Part shown: positions 1,265 through 38,393 of the stretch, piece after piece
Numbering within the stretch: the first letter of the stretch is position 1
Layout: each line of letters opens with the position of its first letter
IMG/VR virus record: IMGVR_UViG_3300044542_000221
DNA: 39,153 nucleotides
DNA from: a virus
Reading direction: 5' to 3' (one strand)
Translations under genes and position numbers: made by a program
Notes under the pieces: generated by a model
What the model saw: the letters and a program-made list of their open reading frames with translations, nothing else
What the model was told of the DNA's origin: nothing
Database searches by the model: none

Positions 1265-2587
1265 ATGCTATTTAGAACTAAGGAACCTGAAAAACGTGAT
1301 TGGGCGATGGACTTAATCAGTGATGGAGTAATTCCAGGCTATTCAACTGGTAGTTTTATAGGTATATCAGCTTTAAAAAACTCTGATGTGCTAACCGCTG
1401 TTTCAATCATTGCGTCAAACGTTGCTAGATTTCCTTTGCTGTTGCTTGATGAACAAACCGGGAAGCCCTTTGATAGTGGAGATTTAACATATCTGCTTAA
1501 CAAAAAGCCAAATGCAATGTTAGATGGTTACCATTGGAAATTTATCATGACGATTAATGCACTGTTAGCTAACGATGGTGTTTCACGAATTGTCAGGGAT
1601 CCAGTAACGCAGGAACCAGCTTTGATTCAATATTTTCCACCAAGCCAAGTCTATATTGACGATTCAGATATTAATAACATCAAATATGAATTTACACCAC
1701 TTGGAGCTAGTCAAACAATCGTTGAGCCAGCTCAAAATGTGATTCACTTTAAATTTTTTACGTATGACGGTATTCATGGACGCTCACCGCTTCTTAGCCT
1801 GGGAGATGAAATAAACTTACAAGAGTCGGGAATTCAAACCCTTTCTAAATTCTTCCAAAGTGGATTAAAAGGCGGCATTTTGAAGATGAGAGGCAAGCTG
1901 AATAAGCAAGCTAGAAAAAAAGCTCGTGAGGATTTTGAGTATGCTCAGCAGGGTGCGACAGGTGGTTCGCCAGTCGTTGTTGACGATACTATTGATTATC
2001 AAACGCTTGAAGTTGATACAAATATTTTGCAATTGATCAACTCAAACAACTATTCAACTTCCCAAATTGCCAAAGCTATGCATATTCCGGCTTACAAGTT
2101 GGGTGTTAATAGTCCTAATCAATCAGTAAAGCAGCTGAATGATGATTTTATTAAATCGGATTTGCCTTACTATTTTGAGCCAATTTCGTCTGAGATTGAA
2201 TTAAAGATGTTGAATGATCAGCAAAGACATCAGTTTAAAGTTCAATTTGATACCAGAAAAGAAACCGGTATATCTGTTGCGGATGCCAAAAATGCTGTTG
2301 ATGGTTCGTTGCTTGATCCAAATGAAGCACGATTCGAAATGGGAGTTAATAAGCGCGATGATCCTAATATGGATCGAATGCAATCTAATTTGAATAATGT
2401 TTATCTCGATATGAAAGAAGCCTATCAAAATCCTAATAAGCCTGACAATACGGTCAAAACAATAAATGAGCGTCGTAAAGCTCAAGGTCAAGAGCCGATT
2501 GAAGGTGGAGATGCAATTTATATGTCATCTGGTGATATTCCGGCAATAGATGTAAACGATACTGGTGGTGATTCTGATGGTTCTTAA
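1265..2587 (+). CDS. Portal protein, HK97 family
   Basis: 440 aa directly after terL. The N-terminal pattern SALKNSDVLTAVSIIASNVARFPL is typical of Phage_portal proteins. Synteny is terL-portal-protease-capsid. Confidence 0.9.
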   Translation: MLFRTKEPEKRDWAMDLISDGVIPGYSTGSFIGISALKNSDVLTAVSIIASNVARFPLLLLDEQTGKPFDSGDLTYLLNKKPNAMLDGYHWKFIMTINALLANDGVSRIVRDPVTQEPALIQYFPPSQVYIDDSDINNIKYEFTPLGASQTIVEPAQNVIHFKFFTYDGIHGRSPLLSLGDEINLQESGIQTLSKFFQSGLKGGILKMRGKLNKQARKKAREDFEYAQQGATGGSPVVVDDTIDYQTLEVDTNILQLINSNNYSTSQIAKAMHIPAYKLGVNSPNQSVKQLNDDFIKSDLPYYFEPISSEIELKMLNDQQRHQFKVQFDTRKETGISVADAKNAVDGSLLDPNEARFEMGVNKRDDPNMDRMQSNLNNVYLDMKEAYQNPNKPDNTVKTINERRKAQGQEPIEGGDAIYMSSGDIPAIDVNDTGGDSDGS

Positions 2588-3338
2588 ACCTTTATATGGT
2601 TCTATGAATTCGACACTTGCTAAAACGATAGCCATGAATAATCCTAACTATTCAAAAATAGTTGAACCATTTGGAGACGCTGGTTCCTATGCTTTATATC
2701 CACAGAAGAAACCGGCAAAACAACATATCGTAAATATTCAAGATGAAGAAATGCTTGCGATTATGCAATTTGCACAGTCATACAGCAATTCTGATTTTTC
2801 AACTCTAAAAAATGAAAATTGGAATAGTGATGAAGAAACTTTTAATCAGGTTCAAACAATTAGTGATTTAGATGGTGAAAAATTAGTATATAAGCATTTG
2901 TACAATAAGTGGTATGGGATGAGCATGACCGATTCCGATGAGGTCAGTTGGAATATGCTAACACTCAACCAAAATAACAAGAATAAGTTGTTTGCATTTT
3001 CATTGATGAAAGCACTTCTAAAACCGGTGGAGTTTCAAAATGTCGATCCGCTGAGCTTAATCCCAAGTGATGGGTTCATGATCTTAATTCCTGATAGTCA
3101 AAATATAGATAGTGTTAAAAGCAAGCTGACTAGTATATCTGGCCAGTTTTTCTTTGCAGGCAAAATTTCAGACGGATCACAAGCAATTCAGGATGCTCAA
3201 ACTATGAGTAACCTAAATGTACACGGCCAAGAGGTGGCTTCGATAATGATGAACAGCTACTCAATGATAACTAATTATGATTCAAGATTATCTAAAATTG
3301 ATCCGGCAAATTATTCAATGAAAGGAGGTGGTATGTAA
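2577..3338 (+). CDS. Dam-like (D12 N6-adenine methyltransferase-like) protein with degenerate motifs, function unknown
   Basis: ATG 2577 lies behind GGTGGTG; the track start GTG 2565 is also possible. N-terminus LKPLYGSM..P.YSKIVEPFGDAGSYAL..HIVNIQDEEML resembles Dam LKWAGGK..VEPFVGAGS..ILADINSDLI. No DPPY-type motif was found. Confidence 0.6.
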   Translation: MVLKPLYGSMNSTLAKTIAMNNPNYSKIVEPFGDAGSYALYPQKKPAKQHIVNIQDEEMLAIMQFAQSYSNSDFSTLKNENWNSDEETFNQVQTISDLDGEKLVYKHLYNKWYGMSMTDSDEVSWNMLTLNQNNKNKLFAFSLMKALLKPVEFQNVDPLSLIPSDGFMILIPDSQNIDSVKSKLTSISGQFFFAGKISDGSQAIQDAQTMSNLNVHGQEVASIMMNSYSMITNYDSRLSKIDPANYSMKGGGM

Positions 3339-3983
3339 ATGACAGTTGATTTAGAAAAACGCCAAGTATCGACAAAAATCAGTTTGAGAACAACAGATGA
3401 TCAAGAAGGTACGCCACAGTTGATTGAAGGCTATGCTTTAAAGTTTAATCGACAATCTGATGTTCTTGGAGGCGGATGGGGACCAACTTTTCGCGAAACA
3501 ATTGATCCACATGCGCTAGACAATACTGACATGTCAAATGTAGTCGCAACTTTTAATCATGATGAAAGCAAAGTCTTAGGCCGTACAGGAGTCAACTTAC
3601 AGCTTTCGGTTGATAATATTGGGCTTAAATTTCAAGTGCAGCCTCCAGATACACAATTGGCACGTGACTTAATGACAAATATTACAGCTGGTATTATTAA
3701 TCAGTGCAGTTTTGCGTTCACAATACCTGATGAAGCTACTGCACAAGATTGGGAAGAATCAGGTGAAAATAATGTTGACTACACTCGAAAGATTAACCAG
3801 ATCGATCATCTCTATGATGTATCTGTAGTGACTACACCAGCTTATCCTGATACAGAAGCAGTTGTTGGCCAACGGAGCAAAAAACTAGTTGAAAACTTAA
3901 TCAAGCAGAAGGATTCATGGAGACAAGAGCGAAAAAAGATGTTATTAGAACTAAAAAAACAAGAAATTTTAGATCAGATTTAA
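3339..3983 (+). CDS. Prohead (capsid maturation) serine protease, HK97/S78 family
   Basis: It carries the motifs ATFNHD (His) and QCSFAF (Ser). Its position between portal and capsid fits. ATG abuts the preceding stop. Confidence 0.9.
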   Translation: MTVDLEKRQVSTKISLRTTDDQEGTPQLIEGYALKFNRQSDVLGGGWGPTFRETIDPHALDNTDMSNVVATFNHDESKVLGRTGVNLQLSVDNIGLKFQVQPPDTQLARDLMTNITAGIINQCSFAFTIPDEATAQDWEESGENNVDYTRKINQIDHLYDVSVVTTPAYPDTEAVVGQRSKKLVENLIKQKDSWRQERKKMLLELKKQEILDQI

Positions 3984-4025
3984 AAATTTAGTCTTTTTTA
4001 ATACAAGAAATTAGGAGGGTCACAT

Positions 4026-5225
4026 ATGACTTTAGATGAAAAAATCAAGGCTTTAAAAGCCGATATTAAAGCTCAACGAGATAAACTGAGTGCAGATCAA
4101 GTTTCGCTTCGTAACTTAGTTGAAAAAGCAGAATCTGATGAAGATTTAGCTAAGGCAAAAGATGCAAGGGGTAAGGTTAATGACCTTAAAGAGGAAATTC
4201 GAAAAAATGAAGATAACCTTAAACTCTATCAGGAAGCTCTGGAAGGCGACGGCCAAAAAAAACCAGTAGCAGGTCGAAATAATAGTGATCCAGCAAAAAA
4301 TGATCGTCGCAAAGCTATCATTGAATACATCCGTTCGAAAGGTACAAAGCGTGACGGCTTGAAATTTGAAAAAACTGATGAAGGCACATTTGTGGTGATC
4401 AACAAACGTGATATTACACCAACAACTGATGGTGTATCATCAACAGATGTTGCTAAAACAATTCCCGACGCTATTTCTTATAACCCGCAGCGTGAAATTC
4501 AAACAGTTATTGATTTAAAACCATTTACTAATGTATTTCAAGCAACAACTAAGAAGGGAAGTTATCCAACTGTTGCTAATGCGACAACAAAAATGGCAAC
4601 TGTTGCAGAATTAGCAGCTAATCCAGCAATGGCAAAACCTGATTTTAACGAAGTTGACTGGTCAGTAGATACTTATCGCCAAGCATTGCCAATTTCACAG
4701 GAATCACTCGATGATTCAGAAATCGACTTAATGGATTTGCTCTCAACAAATGCAGATCAAATCAAACTTAATACTACCAATGATACAATTTCATCGATTT
4801 TGAAGACATTTACTGCTCAGACAGTAGCTTCTTTGGACGATTTGAAATTGGTTAACAATACCAAGTTAGATCCTGCATATGCTCGTACTTTAGTAGTTAC
4901 ACAATCATTTTATCAATGGTTAGATACTTTGAAGGATAACAATGGCCGCTATTTACTGCAAGATTCAATCATTTCTCCAAGCGGTAAAGTTGTTTTTGGT
5001 ATTCCTGTGGTAGTTGTTTCTGATGTGACTTTAGGTGCTACTGGAGAAGCTCATGCCTTCTTAGGCGACATCAAACGTGCTGTTCTGTTTGCAAATCGTG
5101 CAGATTTCATGATTCGTTGGGTTGACGATAATATTTACGGTCAATATTTGCAAGCTGGTATGCGCTTTGGCGTTGCTAAAGCAGACGCTAAAGCTGGTTA
5201 CTTCTTAACTTACTCAAAATCCTAA
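4026..5225 (+). CDS. Major capsid protein, HK97 fold, with N-terminal coiled-coil delta/scaffold domain
   Basis: 399 aa with RBS AGGAGGG upstream. A charged helical N-terminus (about 100 aa) is followed by a capsid-like domain. Synteny supports the call. Confidence 0.92.
   Translation: MTLDEKIKALKADIKAQRDKLSADQVSLRNLVEKAESDEDLAKAKDARGKVNDLKEEIRKNEDNLKLYQEALEGDGQKKPVAGRNNSDPAKNDRRKAIIEYIRSKGTKRDGLKFEKTDEGTFVVINKRDITPTTDGVSSTDVAKTIPDAISYNPQREIQTVIDLKPFTNVFQATTKKGSYPTVANATTKMATVAELAANPAMAKPDFNEVDWSVDTYRQALPISQESLDDSEIDLMDLLSTNADQIKLNTTNDTISSILKTFTAQTVASLDDLKLVNNTKLDPAYARTLVVTQSFYQWLDTLKDNNGRYLLQDSIISPSGKVVFGIPVVVVSDVTLGATGEAHAFLGDIKRAVLFANRADFMIRWVDDNIYGQYLQAGMRFGVAKADAKAGYFLTYSKS
5214..5220 (+). 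promoter_or_regulatory. Candidate -1 frameshift site UCA_AAA_U, two codons before the capsid stop
   Basis: Lys codon AAA (5217-5219) can re-pair on AAA (5216-5218). The -1 frame is open from 5192 to 5485 and encodes an Ig-like domain that begins upstream of the ATG at 5258. Confidence 0.45.
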
Positions 5226-5257
5226 CGCCTGACGGTATCACATTAAGTCAAAAGACA

Positions 5258-5485
5258 ATGAGCGGTACCACTGGCGCTGCTAAGTCAGTGACCGCAATTT
5301 TGACACCTGATGGCGCTTTGGGAGATGTAACAGCAACATCTAGTGATACATCAATTGCTACTGTTGCTAAAAACAGTGATGACAGTTTTACAGTTAACTT
5401 AGTTGCAGCCGGTTCAGCAACGATTACTTTCTCTGTTGGAAACGTAACAAACACATTAGCTGTTACTGTTAGTGCTGCTAGTTAG
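5258..5485 (+). CDS. Big_2-type Ig-like domain ORF, probably expressed as a -1 frameshift C-terminal extension of the major capsid protein
   Basis: The protein reads ...AKSVTAILTPDGALGDVTATSSDTSIATVAKNSDDSFTVNLVAAGSATITFSV, matching the Big_2 pattern. No RBS precedes ATG 5258, and the frame is -1 relative to the capsid gene. Confidence 0.7.
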   Translation: MSGTTGAAKSVTAILTPDGALGDVTATSSDTSIATVAKNSDDSFTVNLVAAGSATITFSVGNVTNTLAVTVSAAS

Positions 5486-5496
5486 GGGGAATATAA

Positions 5497-5817
5497 ATGT
5501 CCCTTTTGACAGATGACCAGTTTGCAACCTTAAAGCTTTACTGCAAAATTGATCAGGATTTTGATGATGATGTTTTAAAAAACCTAGTCGATTCAACGGG
5601 ATTAGAAATTGCAAGAGCAATTCAAGCAAGCTCGACTCCAGAAACTTTCGTCAACGATCCTCGGTTTTTAATTGCATTGATGAAACAAGTCAAAGAAGAT
5701 TATTACCAGCGTGGGTTAACGTCTGACAGTAGCTATCGAGCTGAACTTGCAAATGGCGTTGAAGATATTGTTAATCAATTGCGTGCAGAATTGAGTGATA
5801 ACGATGAAGTTAACTAA
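5497..5817 (+). CDS. Head-tail connector protein (gp6-like)
   Basis: 106 aa with RBS GGGGGA. N-terminus LTDDQFATLKLYCKIDQDFDDDVLKNL is typical of gp6-like connector proteins. Position after the capsid fits. Confidence 0.8.
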   Translation: MSLLTDDQFATLKLYCKIDQDFDDDVLKNLVDSTGLEIARAIQASSTPETFVNDPRFLIALMKQVKEDYYQRGLTSDSSYRAELANGVEDIVNQLRAELSDNDEVN

Positions 5818-6136
5818 TATGACTGAAAGGATTACTTTTTTTAGTCTAAAGCCGGGTGTAACAAATGGAGTCCCAACTAATAATGTTAAGAATGATGAAT
5901 TTACCTGCTGGGCAGAAGTTGCTAAGCTACCATACCGTGAATTTGTCAATAACTCAACAGAGGTTGGCTATCGGAAAGAAACGCCTGTTTTTATCATATC
6001 TTTTAAGCAGAAAAAAGAGATTCAAACAAATTGGCGAATACGTTGGAGAAATCAGGAATACGAAATCATTTCGATGGATCCAGACTATAAAACAAAGGAT
6101 ACGAATCAGATCGCTGGGAGAGTGATACATTCATGA
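5795..6136 (+). CDS. Head closure / head-tail joining protein (Phage_H_T_join-like)
   Basis: It shows the pattern CWAEV...REF...ETPVFIISF..I...WRIRW.NQEYEI. The start is ambiguous (GTG 5795, ATG 5804 or ATG 5819). Confidence 0.75.
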   Translation: MITMKLTNMTERITFFSLKPGVTNGVPTNNVKNDEFTCWAEVAKLPYREFVNNSTEVGYRKETPVFIISFKQKKEIQTNWRIRWRNQEYEIISMDPDYKTKDTNQIAGRVIHS

Positions 6137-6507
6137 GCGTTGAAGGAGAAGCTCAAATGCTATTATCTGTCACTCAGCTAACTGAGGGCTACGACAAACG
6201 GGCCCGCAAAGCAGTTCGAAGTGGTGGCCAAATGTTTGCTGAAAAGCTTAAGTCAGATACGCCCGTTTCAGATGAAGATCATAGCGGATTAGGACCGTTG
6301 GCTAATCATGTTAAGGTTGGCAGTGTTTCAATTAAAACGGGCGATTATTCAGTTGCTGTAGGATATGATAGCTCCAAGGGGCGTATTGCTCATTTTCCTA
6401 ACAGTGGAACATCTAAACAGTCACCACAGCATTTTATTGAAAAAACTCAAAGTGAGATGCGAGAGCCTGTTCTTGCAGAGTTTATTAAAGATTTGAAGGT
6501 GAACTAA
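6133..6507 (+). CDS. Tail component, HK97 gp10 family
   Basis: The C-terminal pattern GRIAHFPNSGTSKQSPQHFIEKT matches the family. ATGA overlap with the upstream gene. Confidence 0.8.
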   Translation: MSVEGEAQMLLSVTQLTEGYDKRARKAVRSGGQMFAEKLKSDTPVSDEDHSGLGPLANHVKVGSVSIKTGDYSVAVGYDSSKGRIAHFPNSGTSKQSPQHFIEKTQSEMREPVLAEFIKDLKVN

Positions 6508-22040: not shown

Positions 22041-22219
22041 GTTGTCTCGAAGTTGTCTAAAAGACTTGTAAGCATTGACTTTTAGGTATACTAAAATGCG
22101 CCACGTGGGAGTTCTGATAAGATTTTATAAGTCTTGATTACCTTTAAATCGGCATTTTAGCCCTGAATGAATCACTAATTGCTGTTAAAAAATATTATTT
22201 TGTTGTCCTCTTGTTGTCC
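22041..22219. other. Candidate attP region (arm-type repeats plus inverted repeat), 3' of int
   Basis: GTTGTC[T/C] occurs at 22041, 22052, 22202 and 22213, as two pairs each phased 11 bp. The inverted repeat aagactt/aagtctt lies at 22061-22067 and 22129-22135. The core cannot be defined without the host sequence. Confidence 0.3.
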
Positions 22220-23305
22220 TAGACTGTCCGTCAACTTCTCAATCCTATCATCAGATCGAGCTTTGTATTCAGCGATCAAGTAAGCATATTTTTCGGCAGT
22301 GATTGACATGTTAGAATGGCCTAGTCTTTTACTAATTGCATAAAGGCTGACACCTTTAAAGAGGAGATAGGCTACATGAGAATGTCTGAGAGAATGGAAG
22401 TGGAAGTTATTTTTTTGAATTTCACATTTTTCCATGATTGAATGTAAAGTCTTATTAACTGCATTAGAGCTTGGCAACTGTCTAGCCTTATTTTCAAAAA
22501 CCATCTTTGAGTTATTTATTTTTAATTGTTTTAAAAGATTAAGCAGGCTAGAACCAACTCGGATAATTCGATATGATGATTTAGTTTTAACAGATTTAAA
22601 ACCTCCGCCTGCATGATAGTCCCAAGACTTATTGATTGATATAGTATGCTGTTTAAAGTTAATATCTTTCCATGTGAGAGCCTGTATCTCTCCAAGTCTC
22701 ATTCCTGTATAGATAGCAGTTAAAATCATGTAGCGGCTAGTATATTGAGTATCTAATCCATCTTCAATGCCTTTTATTAATTTATTAATTTCAGCTACCG
22801 AAAGGTACTCAACTTTGAGTGTTCGTTTCTCGTCATATACAAGCTCAATACCCTGTGTAAAATCTTTTCTGATTATTTCATCAATCATAGCTGCTTTAAC
22901 ACAAGCACGAATTATATTATTTGTTTTTCTAACGGTATCTTTTGCGTGGTTCTTTCCGTAACTGTTAATAAAATGCTGGTATTGATTGCGAGTGATTGAT
23001 TTTAATTTTAAGTTTCCAAAATTTTTTTCAATTATATGTGATACATAAATGTACCGTTTCAGATTACTAGCTGCTACACGATTCTCTTTATAGGTTTTAT
23101 ACCAGTCGATGTAGTATTGGAGAAAAACAACATCGTGATGAGCTATGAGTGAACTATCATTTTGTGCTTCAATTTGAGCAGCGTAAACTCGAGCATCATT
23201 TTTAGTTTTGAACCCTGACTTAGAAGTTTGATGCAGGTTACCAGCTGGATCCCGTTTGGAAACTGTAACTTTCCAGCCACTGCTTAGTTTTCTAAAACTA
23301 GCCAT
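22175..23305 (-). CDS. int: Tyrosine integrase (site-specific recombinase, phage integrase family)
   Basis: Start at MASFRKLSSGW (ATG 23305) lies behind AAGGGAG. It has catalytic-type motifs ...GMRLGE..., HSLRHSHVAYLL and GHSNMSITAEKYAY. Confidence 0.92.
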   Translation of the reverse strand: MASFRKLSSGWKVTVSKRDPAGNLHQTSKSGFKTKNDARVYAAQIEAQNDSSLIAHHDVVFLQYYIDWYKTYKENRVAASNLKRYIYVSHIIEKNFGNLKLKSITRNQYQHFINSYGKNHAKDTVRKTNNIIRACVKAAMIDEIIRKDFTQGIELVYDEKRTLKVEYLSVAEINKLIKGIEDGLDTQYTSRYMILTAIYTGMRLGEIQALTWKDINFKQHTISINKSWDYHAGGGFKSVKTKSSYRIIRVGSSLLNLLKQLKINNSKMVFENKARQLPSSNAVNKTLHSIMEKCEIQKNNFHFHSLRHSHVAYLLFKGVSLYAISKRLGHSNMSITAEKYAYLIAEYKARSDDRIEKLTDSLGQQEDNKIIFFNSN

Positions 23306-23381
23306 TGAAAAAACTCCCTTCATAATATAAAATATGGATGTAAGGGCTGATTGTTCCTTACAAATTTAATAATTCTTTCTA

Positions 23382-32925: not shown

Positions 32926-33417
32926 TTAATTTAGTATTGCTACGCTTAAAGTGAGATAAGATGCAAAAATAATCCATATTAAGTAAGGAACCATAAGGAT
33001 AGATGCTAAACGACTATTTTTGTAAAAATGAATTATACAGCTTAATACAACGAGGTCTAATACGATAATTATTAAAAAGCCTAACCAATAGGCACTAACT
33101 TTAAAGAAAATAATACTCCAAACAAAGTTTAAAATTAACTGGGTAAGAAAAAGTGAATAGTCAATTAATTTAATATGTTTAGGGTAAACCTGTTGGTATA
33201 TTAAATAGCCAGAGATGCCAATTAGTGCGTAAAGTATAGGCCATACAATTCCAAATAGATAGGTTGGTGGAGATAAGGCGGGAAGACTAAGATGATTGTA
33301 GATGGCTTTAATGTCACCCGCAAAAAATGCTGATAGACTTCCAATAAACTCTATAACCAATATAAAAACAATCAAACGGATCCAACTGAATTTTTCTTTT
33401 TTCGTGTATTCGTACAT
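32926..33417 (-). CDS. tspO: TspO/MBR family (tryptophan-rich sensory protein) membrane protein
   Basis: 163 aa with five hydrophobic helices. The hallmark is IYNHLSLPALSPPTYLFGIVWPILYALIGISGY (Y..L.kP...PP..F..VW..LY). RBS AAGGGGG. The gene is flanked by about 190-bp AT-rich noncoding DNA on each side. Confidence 0.85.
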   Translation of the reverse strand: MYEYTKKEKFSWIRLIVFILVIEFIGSLSAFFAGDIKAIYNHLSLPALSPPTYLFGIVWPILYALIGISGYLIYQQVYPKHIKLIDYSLFLTQLILNFVWSIIFFKVSAYWLGFLIIIVLDLVVLSCIIHFYKNSRLASILMVPYLIWIIFASYLTLSVAILN

Positions 33418-34113: not shown

Positions 34114-34527
34114 GTGAAAAGATCAACATTTAATTACATTGCAGACATAATACGTGAATATCCAACATCTGAAATGTACATCAAGAAGCGTGAAGATGAG
34201 CTGATAAACAGGTTTCAGGAGTTTAAAGATGAAAATGTTGGCGGTGGTCGAGCACAGAATAAAAAAGATGAGGGTGTTGAGTGCATGGCGATTACGCTAG
34301 CTGAGGACAGACGATTAAATAATCTCAAAAGAAATGAAGAAGCTGTTCGGAAAATTTTAGAGTCGTCTGACCCAGTAACGCGAGATATTATCTATGAACT
34401 TTACTTAAGAGAAAACTGCATTTTAACGCTTGAGGGGATTGCGCAAGAAGCTCACCTGTCAGGTACAGCTGTGAAGAAAAGAAGACTAAAATTTTTTGAA
34501 AAAGTGGCAGCAGAGTTGGGTTTATAG
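34114..34527 (+). CDS. RinA/ArpU-type late gene transcriptional activator
   Basis: 137 aa with a GTG start. The C-terminus LEGIAQEAHLSGTAVKKRRLKFFEKVAAELGL parallels RinA ...IHISDRTAHRIKRKIISRLAEELG. It occupies the last regulatory gene position before the packaging genes. Confidence 0.75.
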   Translation: MKRSTFNYIADIIREYPTSEMYIKKREDELINRFQEFKDENVGGGRAQNKKDEGVECMAITLAEDRRLNNLKRNEEAVRKILESSDPVTRDIIYELYLRENCILTLEGIAQEAHLSGTAVKKRRLKFFEKVAAELGL

Positions 34528-34550: not shown

Positions 34551-34597
34551 AAAAGTGTCCAAAAAGTGTCCAATTAGCATTAAATTAAGTGTCAAAA
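34551..34597 (+). promoter_or_regulatory. Three direct AAGTGTC(C/A)AA boxes; candidate activator-binding sites of the late promoter
   Basis: aaaagtgtcca occurs in tandem at 34551-34561 and 34562-34572. A third box, aagtgtcaaaa, lies at 34587-34597. The boxes begin 24 nt downstream of the activator gene. Confidence 0.45.
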
Positions 34598-34599
34598 TG

Positions 34600-35054
34600 A
34601 TAGCATAAGAAACTTAGGGATGAGTTTCCGGGTTATCTCCGATATCAGATCAGCGGTCGATCGAGCCGCTATTTATGTAGTAAATGAGGGACATCCCTCA
34701 TGAGCTGCTAACAATCATTTAACGGATACTTGCTATCTGTTAGATACTAACTGACAACCGGGAAAGACCGATAAACACTCGTGTTAGTGTTCATCACTTC
34801 TGCAGCTGGAAGATAAAAACACTCGATTGTAGCGGAAAATACAGTCACTCGCTAGCGTAAACCGCAAAAAATATTTCTTTCTATCGCTAGCAAAAAAGAG
34901 AATGGCATTTGATTTCGTCCATCGAAAGAAAATGGTGTTTGGATTGCGAAGTCGGTGAAATTCCGACATACATATTTGTCCGGAATGACGTTAAACTATT
35001 ATTTTCCCCAAGAAAATATTTTATCGGTAGCAATCAGTGATGGTTGCTATTTTT
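34600..35054 (+). ncRNA. Candidate large structured noncoding RNA or highly structured late leader (about 450 nt)
   Basis: Stops are dense in all plus frames, with no RBS-start pairs. There are many local hairpins (34652-34670, 34685-34700, 34774-34791, 34913-34927, 34951-34967) and palindromes. The region ends at a terminator. Strand and ends are inferred. Confidence 0.35.
35028..35054 (+). terminator. Rho-independent terminator closing the noncoding region
   Basis: Stem tagcaa/ttgcta with a 10-nt loop, then ttttt. Confidence 0.6.
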
Positions 35055-35108
35055 GTTTACTTTTTAAGGCATTAGAGGTTTAATTTAAGAGGTAAAAATA
35101 TTTGTTTT

Positions 35109-36122
35109 ATGGGGGAATTAAAGTTGACAAAGCAAAAAAGGCGTATTTATTTTGATAGAATTTACCTAGGAAAGAATAATTCGGTTTATTTACCCAGCAA
35201 ATTAAGCACAATATTTGATAATTTTACAAAAAAACAATATGATAGCATACCAGAGCTTGATGTTAATGAAAATCATCTTTATGTGTCTGGCATGAAGAAA
35301 ATTAAACTTAAAGATGATATTGATAAAAGTGTTACGCCGGCTGTTGCTCACAAAAGGTTTGCTTATGCGATTAATATAGCCAGTGTTAACCCAGAGGAGG
35401 ATGTGAAATATGGTGATCTCAACAAAGTGGTTGATAAAAGAGAAAATATTGTAGCACCAAATAAGGGTAAAGATGATGAAGAAGAAGAGGAAGAAGAGGA
35501 AGACGAAGATAATTTGATTGGGCCGCTGGTTGACACACAAGTTCTAATAGACCCAAGTAGAAGAATATTAGCAACTTCTCGTGGAATAAACAGATTAAAC
35601 AAGTGGTATATAAAAAAGTTTATGAAGAATTTATTGGGAGTTGATGTTTTTAATTTACAGATTATTTTAAATAAAAAAGGAATAGAAGATATACGAAATT
35701 TGAATGTCAGAACAAAATTAAGTTATTCGGTTGCTAGTCCTGACCATTTCAAACAGTTTAGGAATGCTAGTAAGAAAGAAAGATCAGAAATGGCTTTTGC
35801 TGAATATATGAAAGCAAATAGTTTTAAAATAGTTATAGATTCTGAAAATATGCCTAAACAATTATTAATAGAGAAGGTCAGCCAACTTTTAAAGGCTAAG
35901 GAAGTAAAGTCCATAAATGTTGAAGGTGTAAATGATGGTCAAGAGGAACAGTTAGATTTGGTTAGGAATAAATTATTACTAGATACAGAGTTAGAATATG
36001 AAGATAATATAAAGGTAAGGAATTATATTAATATGCTTGAAGAAGGCTATCTTAGAATATATGATTTTATAAAAGATACTTTTAATGCTGACGCCATAAT
36101 AGTGAAGGATGATGAAAAATGA
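35109..36122 (+). CDS. Unknown 337-aa protein with an internal poly-acidic linker (cassette gene A)
   Basis: Clean ORF. An alternative TTG start at 35124 lies 7 nt after GGGGGA. The run DDEEEEEEEEDED is at 35472-35510. No catalytic or NTP-binding motif recognised. The sequence is AT-rich. Confidence 0.8.
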   Translation: MGELKLTKQKRRIYFDRIYLGKNNSVYLPSKLSTIFDNFTKKQYDSIPELDVNENHLYVSGMKKIKLKDDIDKSVTPAVAHKRFAYAINIASVNPEEDVKYGDLNKVVDKRENIVAPNKGKDDEEEEEEEEDEDNLIGPLVDTQVLIDPSRRILATSRGINRLNKWYIKKFMKNLLGVDVFNLQIILNKKGIEDIRNLNVRTKLSYSVASPDHFKQFRNASKKERSEMAFAEYMKANSFKIVIDSENMPKQLLIEKVSQLLKAKEVKSINVEGVNDGQEEQLDLVRNKLLLDTELEYEDNIKVRNYINMLEEGYLRIYDFIKDTFNADAIIVKDDEK

Positions 36123-36574
36123 AGGAAGGACGAATAAAAAGGAACATAATTACCATTACCCTAATGGTATTGGTATGTATTGTTGCAGCTTGTTTGAAAT
36201 TTTCTCCTTCTAAAATTGCTAATTTCAGTGATGCAATGAACGGAACGTTGTCTTTTGCAGCGATAGCAACCGCTCTTTTATTTTCGTGTTTTTCTTTGAT
36301 TCCCTCGTTTTCAAATTCAAAGTTAGTGGTTATTTTGAAAGACTTAGGAACAGATATAAAAATAATGGATCGTCTTTTAATAGCGACGTCAATTTTTTTT
36401 GCTGTTTCCATATTTTCTCTTGTTGAATTATTTTTGCCCAGTAGTTCTTCCAGTCCATTTTCTATTTTTCTTACATCTACGTGGTTAGCGTTGTTAGTAG
36501 GAGGAATTAACGAACTTATTGAAATAATAAGGCTAATGTTTCAGGCATTGCAGATGTTTTCAAATGAAAAATAG
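36119..36574 (+). CDS. Unknown 151-aa integral membrane protein, four predicted TM helices (cassette gene B)
   Basis: ATGA overlap with gene A. Helices are IITITLMVLVCIVAACL, LSFAAIATALLFSCFSLI, LLIATSIFFAVSIFSLVELF and FSIFLTSTWLALLVGGI. Confidence 0.8.
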   Translation: MKEGRIKRNIITITLMVLVCIVAACLKFSPSKIANFSDAMNGTLSFAAIATALLFSCFSLIPSFSNSKLVVILKDLGTDIKIMDRLLIATSIFFAVSIFSLVELFLPSSSSSPFSIFLTSTWLALLVGGINELIEIIRLMFQALQMFSNEK

Positions 36575-36581
36575 AATTTTA

Positions 36582-36605
36582 AGCAGCCGTTGAGCTGCTT
36601 TTTTT
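36582..36605 (+). terminator. Rho-independent terminator after the cassette
   Basis: Stem agcagc/gctgct with loop cgttga, then tttttt. Confidence 0.75.
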
Positions 36606-36654: not shown

Positions 36655-36870
36655 ATGAATATACCACATATCAGAATTGAAATAGATGATATTGGGAAAG
36701 TGCCAGCTGTTTATATTGATGGCAAACTTATAAAACATCTAATCGGAGTTCATGTTGACTGGGATACAGCAGATCAAGATGGCATTAAATTGAATTCCTA
36801 TGGTATTGAAGCAGTAGGTGATAATGGCACACAACAAGGATGTGGACAGCAAGAATATTCAAAACTATGA
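36655..36870 (+). CDS. Hypothetical protein (71 aa)
   Basis: Strong RBS GAGGAGGA. ATGA overlap with the next gene. Confidence 0.6.
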   Translation: MNIPHIRIEIDDIGKVPAVYIDGKLIKHLIGVHVDWDTADQDGIKLNSYGIEAVGDNGTQQGCGQQEYSKL

Positions 36871-37652
36871 GTAAACCTATTAAACTATCTCGCCTAAATG
36901 GTAAGCCTACTCTTGTTCCTTATGACGCTGCCAATCGTAAAGACAACGACCGTGCATATAATCAAAGACGGTCTACTAATCAAAGTAAGTACGTGGCGTT
37001 TTACAAGACCAGGGAGTGGCTGCATACCAGACAGCAAGTGCTAACTCGTGACTACCATCTATGTCAACGATGCGGACTTGAAGGTTCATTAGTTGATCAT
37101 ATTGTTCCAAGCAAAGATGATTGGGAAGATCGGCTTAACTTAGATAACCTTCAAACGTTATGCAAGGATTGCCACAGCATTAAAACAAAACGTGAGTGGA
37201 TTAAGCACCATAAGGGGGCTGAAAGATATATGATCATCAAGATGGTATGCGGACTGCCCGGAAGTGGTAAGTCAACTTATGTTAGCAAACACAGGACAGA
37301 TCACGACTTGATATATGATTACGATGTGTTGATGTCAGCCTTATCAGGATTGCCATTGCATGAACGCAATCAAGACATTCATGATTATGTGATGTTGTTC
37401 TATGATCAACTATTACGCAAGCTAAGAGCTGAGAAGACATTCAATAGTGTTTGGATCATACAGACTTATCCTGACGAGCGACTAGATACATTGCTATCTA
37501 ACTATCATCATATTGATCACATATTGATCGATACAGACAAATATATTTGTATTGAAAGATTAAAAAAGCAAAATCGTTTCAACGAAAGAATGAATTCAGT
37601 TTTTAACGAATTTTTAAAAAAAGATTTTGGAAAGTTCCGACGCGTTCACTAG
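36867..37652 (+). CDS. HNH endonuclease (packaging-associated type) fused to a C-terminal P-loop NTPase/kinase-like domain
   Basis: ATG 36867 (MSKPIKL). The HNH motif is CQRCG..GSLVDHIVP...NLDNLQTLCKDCHSIKT. Walker A is VCGLPGSGKST. An internal ATG at 37230 (MIIKMVCG...) lies 11 nt after AAGGGGG. Confidence 0.85.
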   Translation: MSKPIKLSRLNGKPTLVPYDAANRKDNDRAYNQRRSTNQSKYVAFYKTREWLHTRQQVLTRDYHLCQRCGLEGSLVDHIVPSKDDWEDRLNLDNLQTLCKDCHSIKTKREWIKHHKGAERYMIIKMVCGLPGSGKSTYVSKHRTDHDLIYDYDVLMSALSGLPLHERNQDIHDYVMLFYDQLLRKLRAEKTFNSVWIIQTYPDERLDTLLSNYHHIDHILIDTDKYICIERLKKQNRFNERMNSVFNEFLKKDFGKFRRVH

Positions 37653-37811: not shown

Positions 37812-38393
37812 ATGGCTAGAAAACAAAAGCTACTATCGAAATCAACAGCTAATTTAACTGTTTTACAGCAGGAAGCTAAATTTAAAGCGGAATTCTTAGC
37901 AGCAGATGGACTGCCAGAACTGCAAAGAACTCCGCCAAATCATTTAAAGGGGGCTGCAAAACAAGAATATAAAAGAATTGTCCAAAGCGTTGGAAAGTTA
38001 CCACTTAGAAATCTTGATAGAGCTGAACTTGAAAATTATTGTACATGGTATGGAATATACAAAGATATCTCAATTCGAATTCAAAAATATGCGGTGATGA
38101 TTCCAGAAGCTGAAAAAGAATTGGAACGTGCTGAGAGAAGATTAAAGACAGCTGACCAAGATTCAGATAAAGAGACACTAAAGAAAATAATGGCAGAGTT
38201 AAAAAGAGCTTCTTCAGATTTAGACAATTTAGAGTTTAAACGAGATACGGAAATTAAGCATTTAGATAAAGCTACAAAAAGTTTGAAGGGCCTTGCATCT
38301 GATCTGGGATTGAATGTCAATTCACGGATGCAGATGAATATGCCTAAAACTGATGAAGACAAGCCAAAATCAATTAAGGGGGTATTTGGATGA
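37812..38393 (+). CDS. terS: Terminase small subunit, P27 family
   Basis: 193 aa. The pattern TPPNHLKGAAKQEYKRIV..L....LDRAELENYC.WYGIY matches Terminase_4. ATGA overlap with terL. Confidence 0.85.
   Translation: MARKQKLLSKSTANLTVLQQEAKFKAEFLAADGLPELQRTPPNHLKGAAKQEYKRIVQSVGKLPLRNLDRAELENYCTWYGIYKDISIRIQKYAVMIPEAEKELERAERRLKTADQDSDKETLKKIMAELKRASSDLDNLEFKRDTEIKHLDKATKSLKGLASDLGLNVNSRMQMNMPKTDEDKPKSIKGVFG

Follow-up and report, generated by a model that had tools for sequence, protein, structure and literature searches.

Organization of the cassette

The viral DNA stretch IMGVR_UViG_3300044542_000221 (39,153 nt; "the window" below means this whole stretch) carries a two-gene cassette on its + strand, composed of gene A (337 amino acids, aa) and gene B (151 aa). 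An original prediction had described this cassette as an orphan and a candidate novel two-component defence module lying between a late activator gene and the packaging genes. Both open reading frames (ORFs), with their ATGA overlap, were present exactly as described, and the activator upstream and the packaging genes downstream were found as stated (Table 1). Gene B is predicted to be translationally coupled to gene A through the ATGA overlap. The AT-richness claimed for the cassette was also borne out, as its G+C content was 0.309 compared with a window mean of 0.365 ± 0.022, and no other 1550-bp segment was as low, making the cassette the most AT-rich 1.55 kb of the phage. For gene A, translation may start at the TTG at 35124 instead of the ATG at 35109: a GGGGG Shine-Dalgarno (SD) sequence lies ~8 nt upstream of the TTG and a GAGG lies ~16 nt upstream of the ATG, and the N-termini of A homologs are shorter than that of A.

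The cassette was said to be bracketed by terminators, and a hairpin followed by a T-run was found on both sides, at 35026-35051 and at 36581-36600. The upstream hairpin would insulate the cassette from rinA/early transcription. The number of terminator-like sites in the 5.5-kb region was not above chance (4 found, 3.2 ± 1.6 expected); despite this count we consider their positions meaningful, because the same order of hairpin and T-run, A-B pair, and hairpin and T-run recurs in four other divergent cassettes. Counting the present one, a hairpin with a T-run was located 45-60 nt upstream of A in 5/5 divergent cassettes, and a canonical terminator was located within about 25 nt of the B stop codon in 5/5. 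The promoter-like pair TTTACT-17-TTTAAT was present where it had been predicted, but it is a weak candidate, since the -10 element has no A at position 2 and the pair fails the scanner criteria. Promoter-like sites were likewise not enriched in the region (18 found, 23.8 expected). A TTTAAT -10-like element occurs at the same relative position, with a TG extension, in the cassettes of Enterococcus phage EG-TP1 and of a metagenomic phage (L004). Altogether, all five divergent cassettes share one layout, consisting of hairpin and T-run, -10-like element, SD sequence, A, B and canonical terminator, which is a classic moron organization.

Table 1. Features of the cassette and of its surroundings, with positions in the window
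Feature	Position	Strand	Evidence or remark
Gene A, RexA-like soluble protein, predicted sensor/DNA-binding component	35109..36122	+	phrog_11507, DUF6731, AlphaFold2/Foldseek, RexA hhalign
Gene B, four-transmembrane protein of RexB-like architecture, predicted membrane effector	36119..36574	+	Topology, partner homology, linkage
Upstream terminator-like hairpin GGTAGCAATC..GATGGTTGCTA with T-run	35026..35054	+	11-pair stem
Weak sigma-70-like promoter candidate TTTACT-17-TTTAAT	35056..35084	+	Read from sequence; scanner call absent
Acidic insertion DDEEEEEEEEDED in A, 13 residues	35472..35510	+	Lineage-specific low-confidence loop
Invariant motif LGTDIKIMDRLL, B residues 76-87	36344..36379	+	Invariant columns in alignments A2/A4
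Canonical intrinsic terminator AAGCAGC-CGTTGA-GCTGCTT with T7	36581..36605	+	7 nt after the stop codon of B
RinA-family activator	34114-34527		Upstream of the cassette; TIGR01636, 5e-27
71-aa ORF			Downstream of the cassette
HNH endonuclease fused to a P-loop (AAA_33-like) domain	36840-37652	+	
Terminase_4 terS	37812-38393		Downstream of the HNH/P-loop fusion
Tyrosine integrase	22175-23323		

The A-B pair is linked across bacteria and mobile among phages

An adjacent B-like gene was present in 36/36 fetched loci that contain an intact A-like gene, so that the linkage of the two genes is obligate among these loci, which span at least five phyla (Firmicutes, Cyanobacteria, Planctomycetota, Nitrospirota and Desulfobacterota). 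In Firmicutes, Nitrospirota, Planctomycetota and Desulfobacterota, both genes of the pair point the same way and either overlap or are separated by a small gap. In four cyanobacterial loci (L029, L030, L033 and L038) the genes were convergent (tail-to-tail), their ends overlapping by up to 8 nt or being separated by up to 10 nt, which points to separate promoters and possibly to antisense effects where the 3' ends meet. That the linkage survives this change of orientation argues for a functional partnership of A and B.

In phages, tblastn searches with A and B detected homologs in one and the same set of 11 phage records, side by side and with the gene order unchanged, namely Javan prophages of Streptococcus pyogenes, S. 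dysgalactiae and S. uberis and Enterococcus phage EG-TP1; all phage-borne homologs were in prophages or induced temperate phages. The pair was located just upstream of HNH/terS in the streptococcal phages and in the unrelated metagenomic phage L004, as in the window, and in a different slot, between endolysin and integrase, in EG-TP1. The presence/absence polymorphism proposed for the activator-terS junction was found, as not all syntenic relatives carry the pair. Among 135 streptococcal phage records sharing the DNA that flanks the Javan484 cassette, 11 contained the pair. Javan454 provides the empty site, its flanks being joined by 171 bp where the occupied site has 2.3 kb; the left breakpoint maps 109 nt before the A start. 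In LFP01, the closest relative of the packaging module, the slot is empty and the activator directly abuts HNH; in Lrm1, the same slot is occupied by unrelated genes. In streptococcal prophages, the cassette is a discrete insertion. The EG-TP1 record annotates the A homolog (L002 5983-6945) as 'SepS25B protein' and the B homolog as '7TM_GPCR_Srx domain-containing protein'; both labels look like artefacts of automated structure or name transfer, and a literature search for SepS25B found nothing.

The neighbourhoods of cellular copies include defence and mobile genes. In two Nitrospira metagenome-assembled genomes of one lineage (L027 and L028, about 1880-6350), the pair lies directly downstream of type I restriction-modification (R-M) hsdM-hsdS genes, and an aggregate scan found EcoEI_R_C-domain ORFs among the neighbours in both; here the pair may be embedded in an R-M operon. 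Neighbours of cellular copies also include AbiEi/Eii, Tn7-like TniB/TniQ and P2-like baseplate genes. These neighbourhoods are suggestive, not decisive.

Protein A is a divergent DUF6731 member and a probable remote homolog of RexA

In direct family scans, neither A nor B matched any Pfam, NCBIfam or PADLOC family, and no recognizable enzymatic motif was found in A. A matched phrog_11507 at 3e-38, a PHROG of unknown function, and gave no match to Pfam DUF6731 at E ≤ 10, being a divergent outlier below the Pfam detection limit. An exhaustive search with an A-family profile returned 174 cluster representatives at E ≤ 1e-3; the distant tail of this search carried Pfam DUF6731 at 84-116 bits, and DUF6731 proteins were recovered with E values of 1e-5 to 1e-12. 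When the A family was aligned with canonical DUF6731 (PF20505), hhalign gave 99.5% with an E value of 3.8e-22 over 281 columns, and the homology between the ~295-residue DUF6731 profile and the A family was full-length. Furthermore, PF20505 was matched by 95 of the 131 superfamily members, and an E. hirae intermediate is already named 'DUF6731 family protein' by NCBI. By profile comparison, A is a full-length, divergent member of DUF6731. With a superfamily of this size and an A-B pairing conserved across phyla, the orphan status claimed for the cassette does not hold. Canonical DUF6731 members are mostly chromosomal and belong to Gram-negative, cyanobacterial or planctomycete genomes; a literature search for DUF6731 or PF20505 found no paper, no published function and no link to Rex.

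An AlphaFold2 model of A was built on a 131-sequence alignment, replacing an earlier and poor model based on 17 close sequences (predicted local distance difference test, pLDDT, 49); it reached a pLDDT of 90.2 and a predicted TM-score (pTM) of 0.87. In a Foldseek search of the PDB, the only significant matches of this model were lambda RexA (8twq; E 3.2e-6, probability 1.00) and RdgC (E. coli 2owl; E 1.3e-3, probability 0.95), followed by kinetochore CENP-N/L at E ≥ 0.1. The RexA structure paper lists RdgC and IML3-CHL4 as the structural neighbours of RexA (PMC11077077), and the neighbours of the A model match them. The RexA fold combines a split globular domain, a dimerization domain and a kinked C-terminal helix, as in RdgC; the model, with RexA as its top PDB match, ends in a broken helix (303-316/318-324). 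Structure matches of A in BFVD were uncharacterized ~300-aa phage proteins and then phage RdgCs. No meaningful match came from searching PDB sequences with the A3, A4 and A9 profiles, and Pfam RdgC was matched neither by A nor, among the matches listed, by the 131 superfamily members. The closest structural relatives were the exclusion protein RexA and, more weakly, the recombination-associated RdgC, and no virion or packaging protein was among them.

Profile comparison pointed in the same direction. The superfamily profile aligned with a four-member RexA family at an hhalign probability of 95.1% (E 3.4e-8), with 226 colinear columns covering RexA residues 36-273 of 279. The score of 57.5 compares with 13.1 ± 2.5 (maximum 19.7) for column-shuffled nulls and 18.7 for the reversed alignment. 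The best-conserved motifs aligned with each other, LADDESLGFPSFLF in RexA, LDDDEGLGE.TAFLYDP in DUF6731 and EDEDNLIGPLVDTQVLIDP in A. In addition, two of the 131 superfamily members matched DUF4747 (8.5e-5), the domain on which the link of Sbash gp30 and CarolAnn gp44 to RexA was based, and one of the 131 matched Pfam RexA (PF15969) weakly (0.03). Taken together, the structure prediction and the profile comparison indicate that A is a remote homolog of lambda RexA with a predicted RexA/RdgC fold, belonging to a DUF6731 clade.

The acidic run in A had been taken for a linker between two parts of the protein. The run itself is present (Table 1), but it is no domain linker; it is a disordered insertion within a globular domain, with pLDDT values of 56-79 across residues 111-140, and the homologs are without such a run. 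The insertion is located directly before a conserved acidic-G-hydrophobic-T motif and extends an acidic motif that is conserved in DUF6731 and RexA. Removal of residues 120-135 shifts the calculated isoelectric point (pI) of A from 5.7 to 9.2; that of RexA is 8.6. This poly-acidic loop could be a DNA-mimicking autoinhibitory element that sets the trigger threshold. As a whole, A is most likely a dimeric cytoplasmic sensor with a predicted basic, nucleic-acid-binding core.

Protein B is a four-transmembrane protein with an invariant motif in a predicted cytoplasmic loop

The four hydrophobic helices noted in B were confirmed as four transmembrane (TM) segments, at residues 10-28, 40-58, 86-104 and 112-130, compared with 8-26, 48-66, 84-102 and 109-127 in RexB. 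The two proteins are of similar length (151 aa and 144 aa), and both have a basic N-terminus and a basic central loop. From the charge distribution, B is predicted to have an N-in/C-in topology, the same as RexB, and to be a small four-TM protein of the inner membrane. B is the better conserved of the two proteins, with 43-64% identity among homologs compared with 28-45% for A. The invariant LGTDIK..DRLL motif of B lies in the basic loop between TM2 and TM3, which is predicted to be cytoplasmic. B also aligned with the partner proteins of ~150 aa whose genes adjoin canonical DUF6731 genes (hhalign 95.5%, E 1.5e-8), and the hidden Markov model of B matched the cyanobacterial partners at 25-35 bits.

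Annotation of B is systematically wrong in the records that we compared (window 36119-36574; L005/L006; L001 6856-7317). The JGI call is an N-truncated version of 136 aa, Logan has a 109-aa antisense ORF instead, and an antisense ORF is annotated over B in the GenBank record of Javan484. The start giving 151 aa is supported by the conserved N-terminus MKKGRxKRN.

Comparison with known two-component systems

Rex was the first abortive-infection system to be discovered, and its mechanism is still not settled. In the Gram-positive literature, 'RexAB' usually denotes an AddAB-type helicase-nuclease, a collision of names that is irrelevant here. According to the model for lambda, soluble RexA senses infection and switches on four-TM RexB, which depolarizes the membrane and aborts infection (PMC13276650). 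The cassette resembles lambda RexA/RexB in that the soluble gene comes first and the membrane gene immediately downstream (279 and 144 aa in lambda, 337 and 151 aa here), in being borne by temperate phages and dispensable for the phage, in the predicted RexA/RdgC fold of A and in the four TM segments of B near the RexB positions. In contrast, the lambda pair lies beside cI and is expressed from PRM, whereas the cassette has its own terminators and a weak promoter candidate; A differs from RexA in its 13-residue acidic insertion, and RexA residues R219/K221 are not conserved in A. Lambda RexA/RexB is the correct comparator by gene order, protein sizes and four-TM partner, and the claimed novelty in kind does not stand.

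A 2026 paper counts five Rex-like systems, none from Firmicutes (Sci Rep 2026, PMC12894663). RexABpp (PP_5643/PP_5644), from prophage P1 of Pseudomonas putida, is a validated defence system in which both genes were shown experimentally to be needed; PP_5643 matches RexA at 98% in HHpred, and its four-TM partner PP_5644 is without RexB homology (PMC12894663). The evidence pattern for the cassette is identical, with a prophage-borne gene for a protein that is RexA-like only by profile or structure and a four-TM partner without RexB homology, although RexABpp comes from another host phylum and lies near a CI-like repressor. The actinophage systems Sbash gp30/31, CarolAnn gp44/43 and Butters gp30/31 likewise pair a soluble DUF4747-type protein with a four-TM protein in prophage-expressed heterotypic defence. 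In Sbash, the pair is located away from the immunity region and driven by a promoter of its own, as proposed here for the cassette; substitutions in the central loop of Sbash gp31 abolish defence (PMC6426596), and the invariant motif of B lies in the loop equivalent to this essential central cytoplasmic loop. CarolAnn differs in having larger proteins (370 and 178 aa), and in Butters the roles of the two proteins are reversed. Canonical DUF6731 genes carry a ~150-aa four-TM partner homologous to B and differ in that this partner is convergent in cyanobacteria. RdgC shares the two-domain fold and a size of about 300 aa; unlike A, it is encoded by a chromosomal housekeeping gene and works without a membrane partner, as a ring-shaped dimer, and it is less similar to A than RexA is.

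A probable phage-exclusion module and the alternatives

The core inference, that the cassette looks like an autonomous, horizontally mobile accessory module, is supported by its presence/absence polymorphism, its occurrence in different accessory slots, its moron-like layout and the remote homology of A to RexA. Judged from sequence, predicted structure and analogy, the cassette is probably a RexAB-type two-component phage-exclusion or abortive-infection moron of a temperate Lactobacillales phage. Of the original prediction, the autonomous unit with a probable role in defence is supported, and the orphan, novel and acidic-linker parts do not stand. The mechanism that we propose is modelled on lambda RexAB, Sbash gp30/31, CarolAnn gp44/43 and P. 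putida RexABpp. In this view, the prophage would express the A-B pair from its own promoter. Infection by another phage would activate A through a phage protein or a DNA-protein replication or recombination intermediate, and the activated A would engage the conserved central cytoplasmic loop of B. B would then compromise the membrane by depolarization or leak, so that ATP would drop, growth would stop and the infection would be aborted. Expression in lysogens, contact between A and B, the effect on the membrane and the defence phenotype are all inferred from these analogies.

Several observations weigh against a RexAB-type assignment. The sequence link between A and RexA depends on the deep superfamily profile, and the streptococcal/lactobacillus A subfamily alone gave no hhalign signal against RexA (0.1%). 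The Pfam RexA/RexB and PADLOC models matched neither A, B nor ten distant relatives, and the CarolAnn gp44/gp43 proteins gave no hhalign signal against the A and B profiles. The DNA-binding residues R219/K221 of RexA do not align with basic residues in A. Global TM-scores between the A model and RexA were low (0.30-0.36, with a root-mean-square deviation of 18-19 Å); RexA is a hinged two-domain protein that was crystallized in its closed state (PMC11077077), which plausibly explains the low rigid-body scores. The B and RexB families aligned at only 3.2% in hhalign (E 0.014, 58 columns, TM2 and loop only), the comparison was not significant with a single RexB sequence or a four-member profile, and none of 24 B-family members matched Pfam RexB (PF15968). 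The B-RexB score was slightly above shuffled nulls; because such a null is too lenient for TM proteins, we do not claim homology of B to RexB. RexB homology is not treated as defining in the field, since the validated P. putida and actinophage partners are likewise without it. Finally, the cassette lies at the late-operon junction and not beside the repressor as in lambda, its candidate promoter matches the consensus poorly, and cellular copies, of which the sample is small, have mixed neighbourhoods that include housekeeping genes.

RdgC, the second-best structural match of A, and the phage RdgC proteins in BFVD leave room for a role in the phage life cycle, in which A would be an RdgC/RexA-like DNA-binding modulator of recombination or of the lysogeny-to-lytic switch, and B would tune or sequester A at the membrane or shield phage proteins from proteolysis. 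In lambda, RexA biases the CI/Cro switch independently of its partner RexB, itself an inhibitor of Clp proteolysis (PMC11077077); the position between late activator RinA and the packaging genes and the basic core of A (pI 9.2) would also suit such a role. We nevertheless regard it as unlikely. The pair is dispensable, most syntenic relatives being without it, it moves between unrelated slots, and its terminators insulate it from phage operons; cellular, non-phage copies lie near R-M and Tn7-like genes, where a lysis-lysogeny role would be senseless, and RdgC has no membrane partner, whereas A and B were linked at 36/36 loci. Strict co-occurrence and translational coupling would also fit a stoichiometric toxin-neutralizer pair, in which soluble A is the growth-inhibiting effector and B sequesters or neutralizes it until infection releases A. 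Such a reversal has a precedent in Butters, whose effector is the RexA-like gp30 and whose defence does not require gp31 (PMC12894663), and the much stronger conservation of B than of A agrees with it. In three of the four other characterized Rex-type systems, though, the membrane protein is the effector (PMC12894663), convergent and separately transcribed cyanobacterial genes would be unusual for a tightly balanced toxin-antitoxin pair, and A carries no recognizable enzymatic motif, so that we consider the reversal quite improbable.

Small multi-TM proteins of prophages are often superinfection-exclusion proteins or holins, and one B homolog had a faint match to Phage_holin_2_1 (E 0.064). B might thus act alone by blocking injection or timing lysis, with A as an unrelated co-transcribed passenger, yet the linkage in 36/36 loci across phyla, even where orientation has changed, shows that A is no passenger; relatives that are missing the cassette, which are the majority, lyse normally, and EG-TP1 has its own annotated holin and endolysin beside the cassette. 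This makes an independent role of B very improbable. Kiwa, the comparator offered by the original prediction, proved even harder to defend. In Kiwa, a four-TM protein senses phage attachment and a soluble protein binds incoming phage DNA and blocks late expression (mechanism summarized in PMC13276650), and the superficial match is a four-TM protein of ~150-200 aa with a soluble, probably DNA-binding protein of ~300 aa. PADLOC Kiwa models (KwaA/KwaB) matched neither A nor B (E ≤ 1) nor ten relatives, DUF4868 was absent among the matches listed (the best 25 of 81 Pfam families for the 131 superfamily members), and no Kiwa entry was among the top 50 Foldseek matches in the PDB, where RexA ranked first. 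The gene order is also reversed, KwaA being upstream in Kiwa. Identity with Kiwa was rejected on the missing model matches and the reversed order, and a Kiwa-like mode of action is barely credible.

The RexAB-type reading could extend well beyond this phage. It is possible, although we lean slightly against it, that DUF6731 and its cognate four-TM partner make up a large, pan-bacterial and previously unrecognized branch of Rex-type abortive-infection systems with a membrane effector. New here are the proposed placement of DUF6731 and its partner among Rex-type systems, the wide spread of the family and its occurrence in Lactobacillales and streptococcal prophages; among Firmicutes, the family is found in prophages of species and genera such as S. 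pyogenes, S. suis, S. uberis, Enterococcus and Lacticaseibacillus. If the assignment is true, the Rex paradigm, with five cases described so far, would cover a widespread family with chromosomal, non-prophage copies embedded in R-M operons and Tn7-like elements, and the uncharacterized DUF6731 and its unnamed membrane partner would gain a testable function. Rex-type immunity would then extend to lactic-acid bacteria, in which phage resistance is industrially important, and to the prophages that streptococcal pathogens carry. It would also make available hundreds of diverse sequence pairs, in which co-variation, for instance between the LGTDIK..DRLL loop of B and A, could reveal the sensor-effector contact. 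PADLOC v2 and the Pfam RexA/RexB models miss the DUF6731-type clade entirely.

Phage context and neighbouring genes

The window is a circularly permuted temperate phage, its temperate nature being indicated by the integrase (Table 1). TerL and portal follow terS in sibling contigs and lie at the window start. Lactobacillus phages LF1/LFP01, A2 and Lrm1 have similar packaging genes. When the region was compared with phages by megablast, no close relative of this phage was detected. The HNH/P-loop fusion downstream of the cassette carries the label 'terminase small subunit' in phrog_4581 and in several RefSeq records, although the genuine Terminase_4 terS follows it.

Upstream of rinA, a membrane protein of the TspO/MBR family (Pfam 9e-38) is encoded at 32926-33417 on the - strand in an AT-rich patch (G+C content 0.307). 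TspO is unusual phage cargo, and the gene looks like another moron, unrelated to the cassette.

Between rinA and the cassette lies a non-coding stretch of ~500 nt (34560-35060, +), in which no Rfam family, no tRNA and no blastn match in phages was found. Its minimum free energy was -139.5 kcal/mol compared with -110.1 ± 5.2 kcal/mol for shuffled sequences (z -5.6), and a T-arm-like hairpin, GTCGGTGAAATTCCGAC, lies within it. The corresponding gap between activator and terS in streptococcal relatives contains tRNA genes or tRNA-like sequence, and the left breakpoint of the cassette abuts this gap. We see three possible identities for the stretch, namely a cos/late-promoter region, a degenerate tRNA array and a structured RNA.

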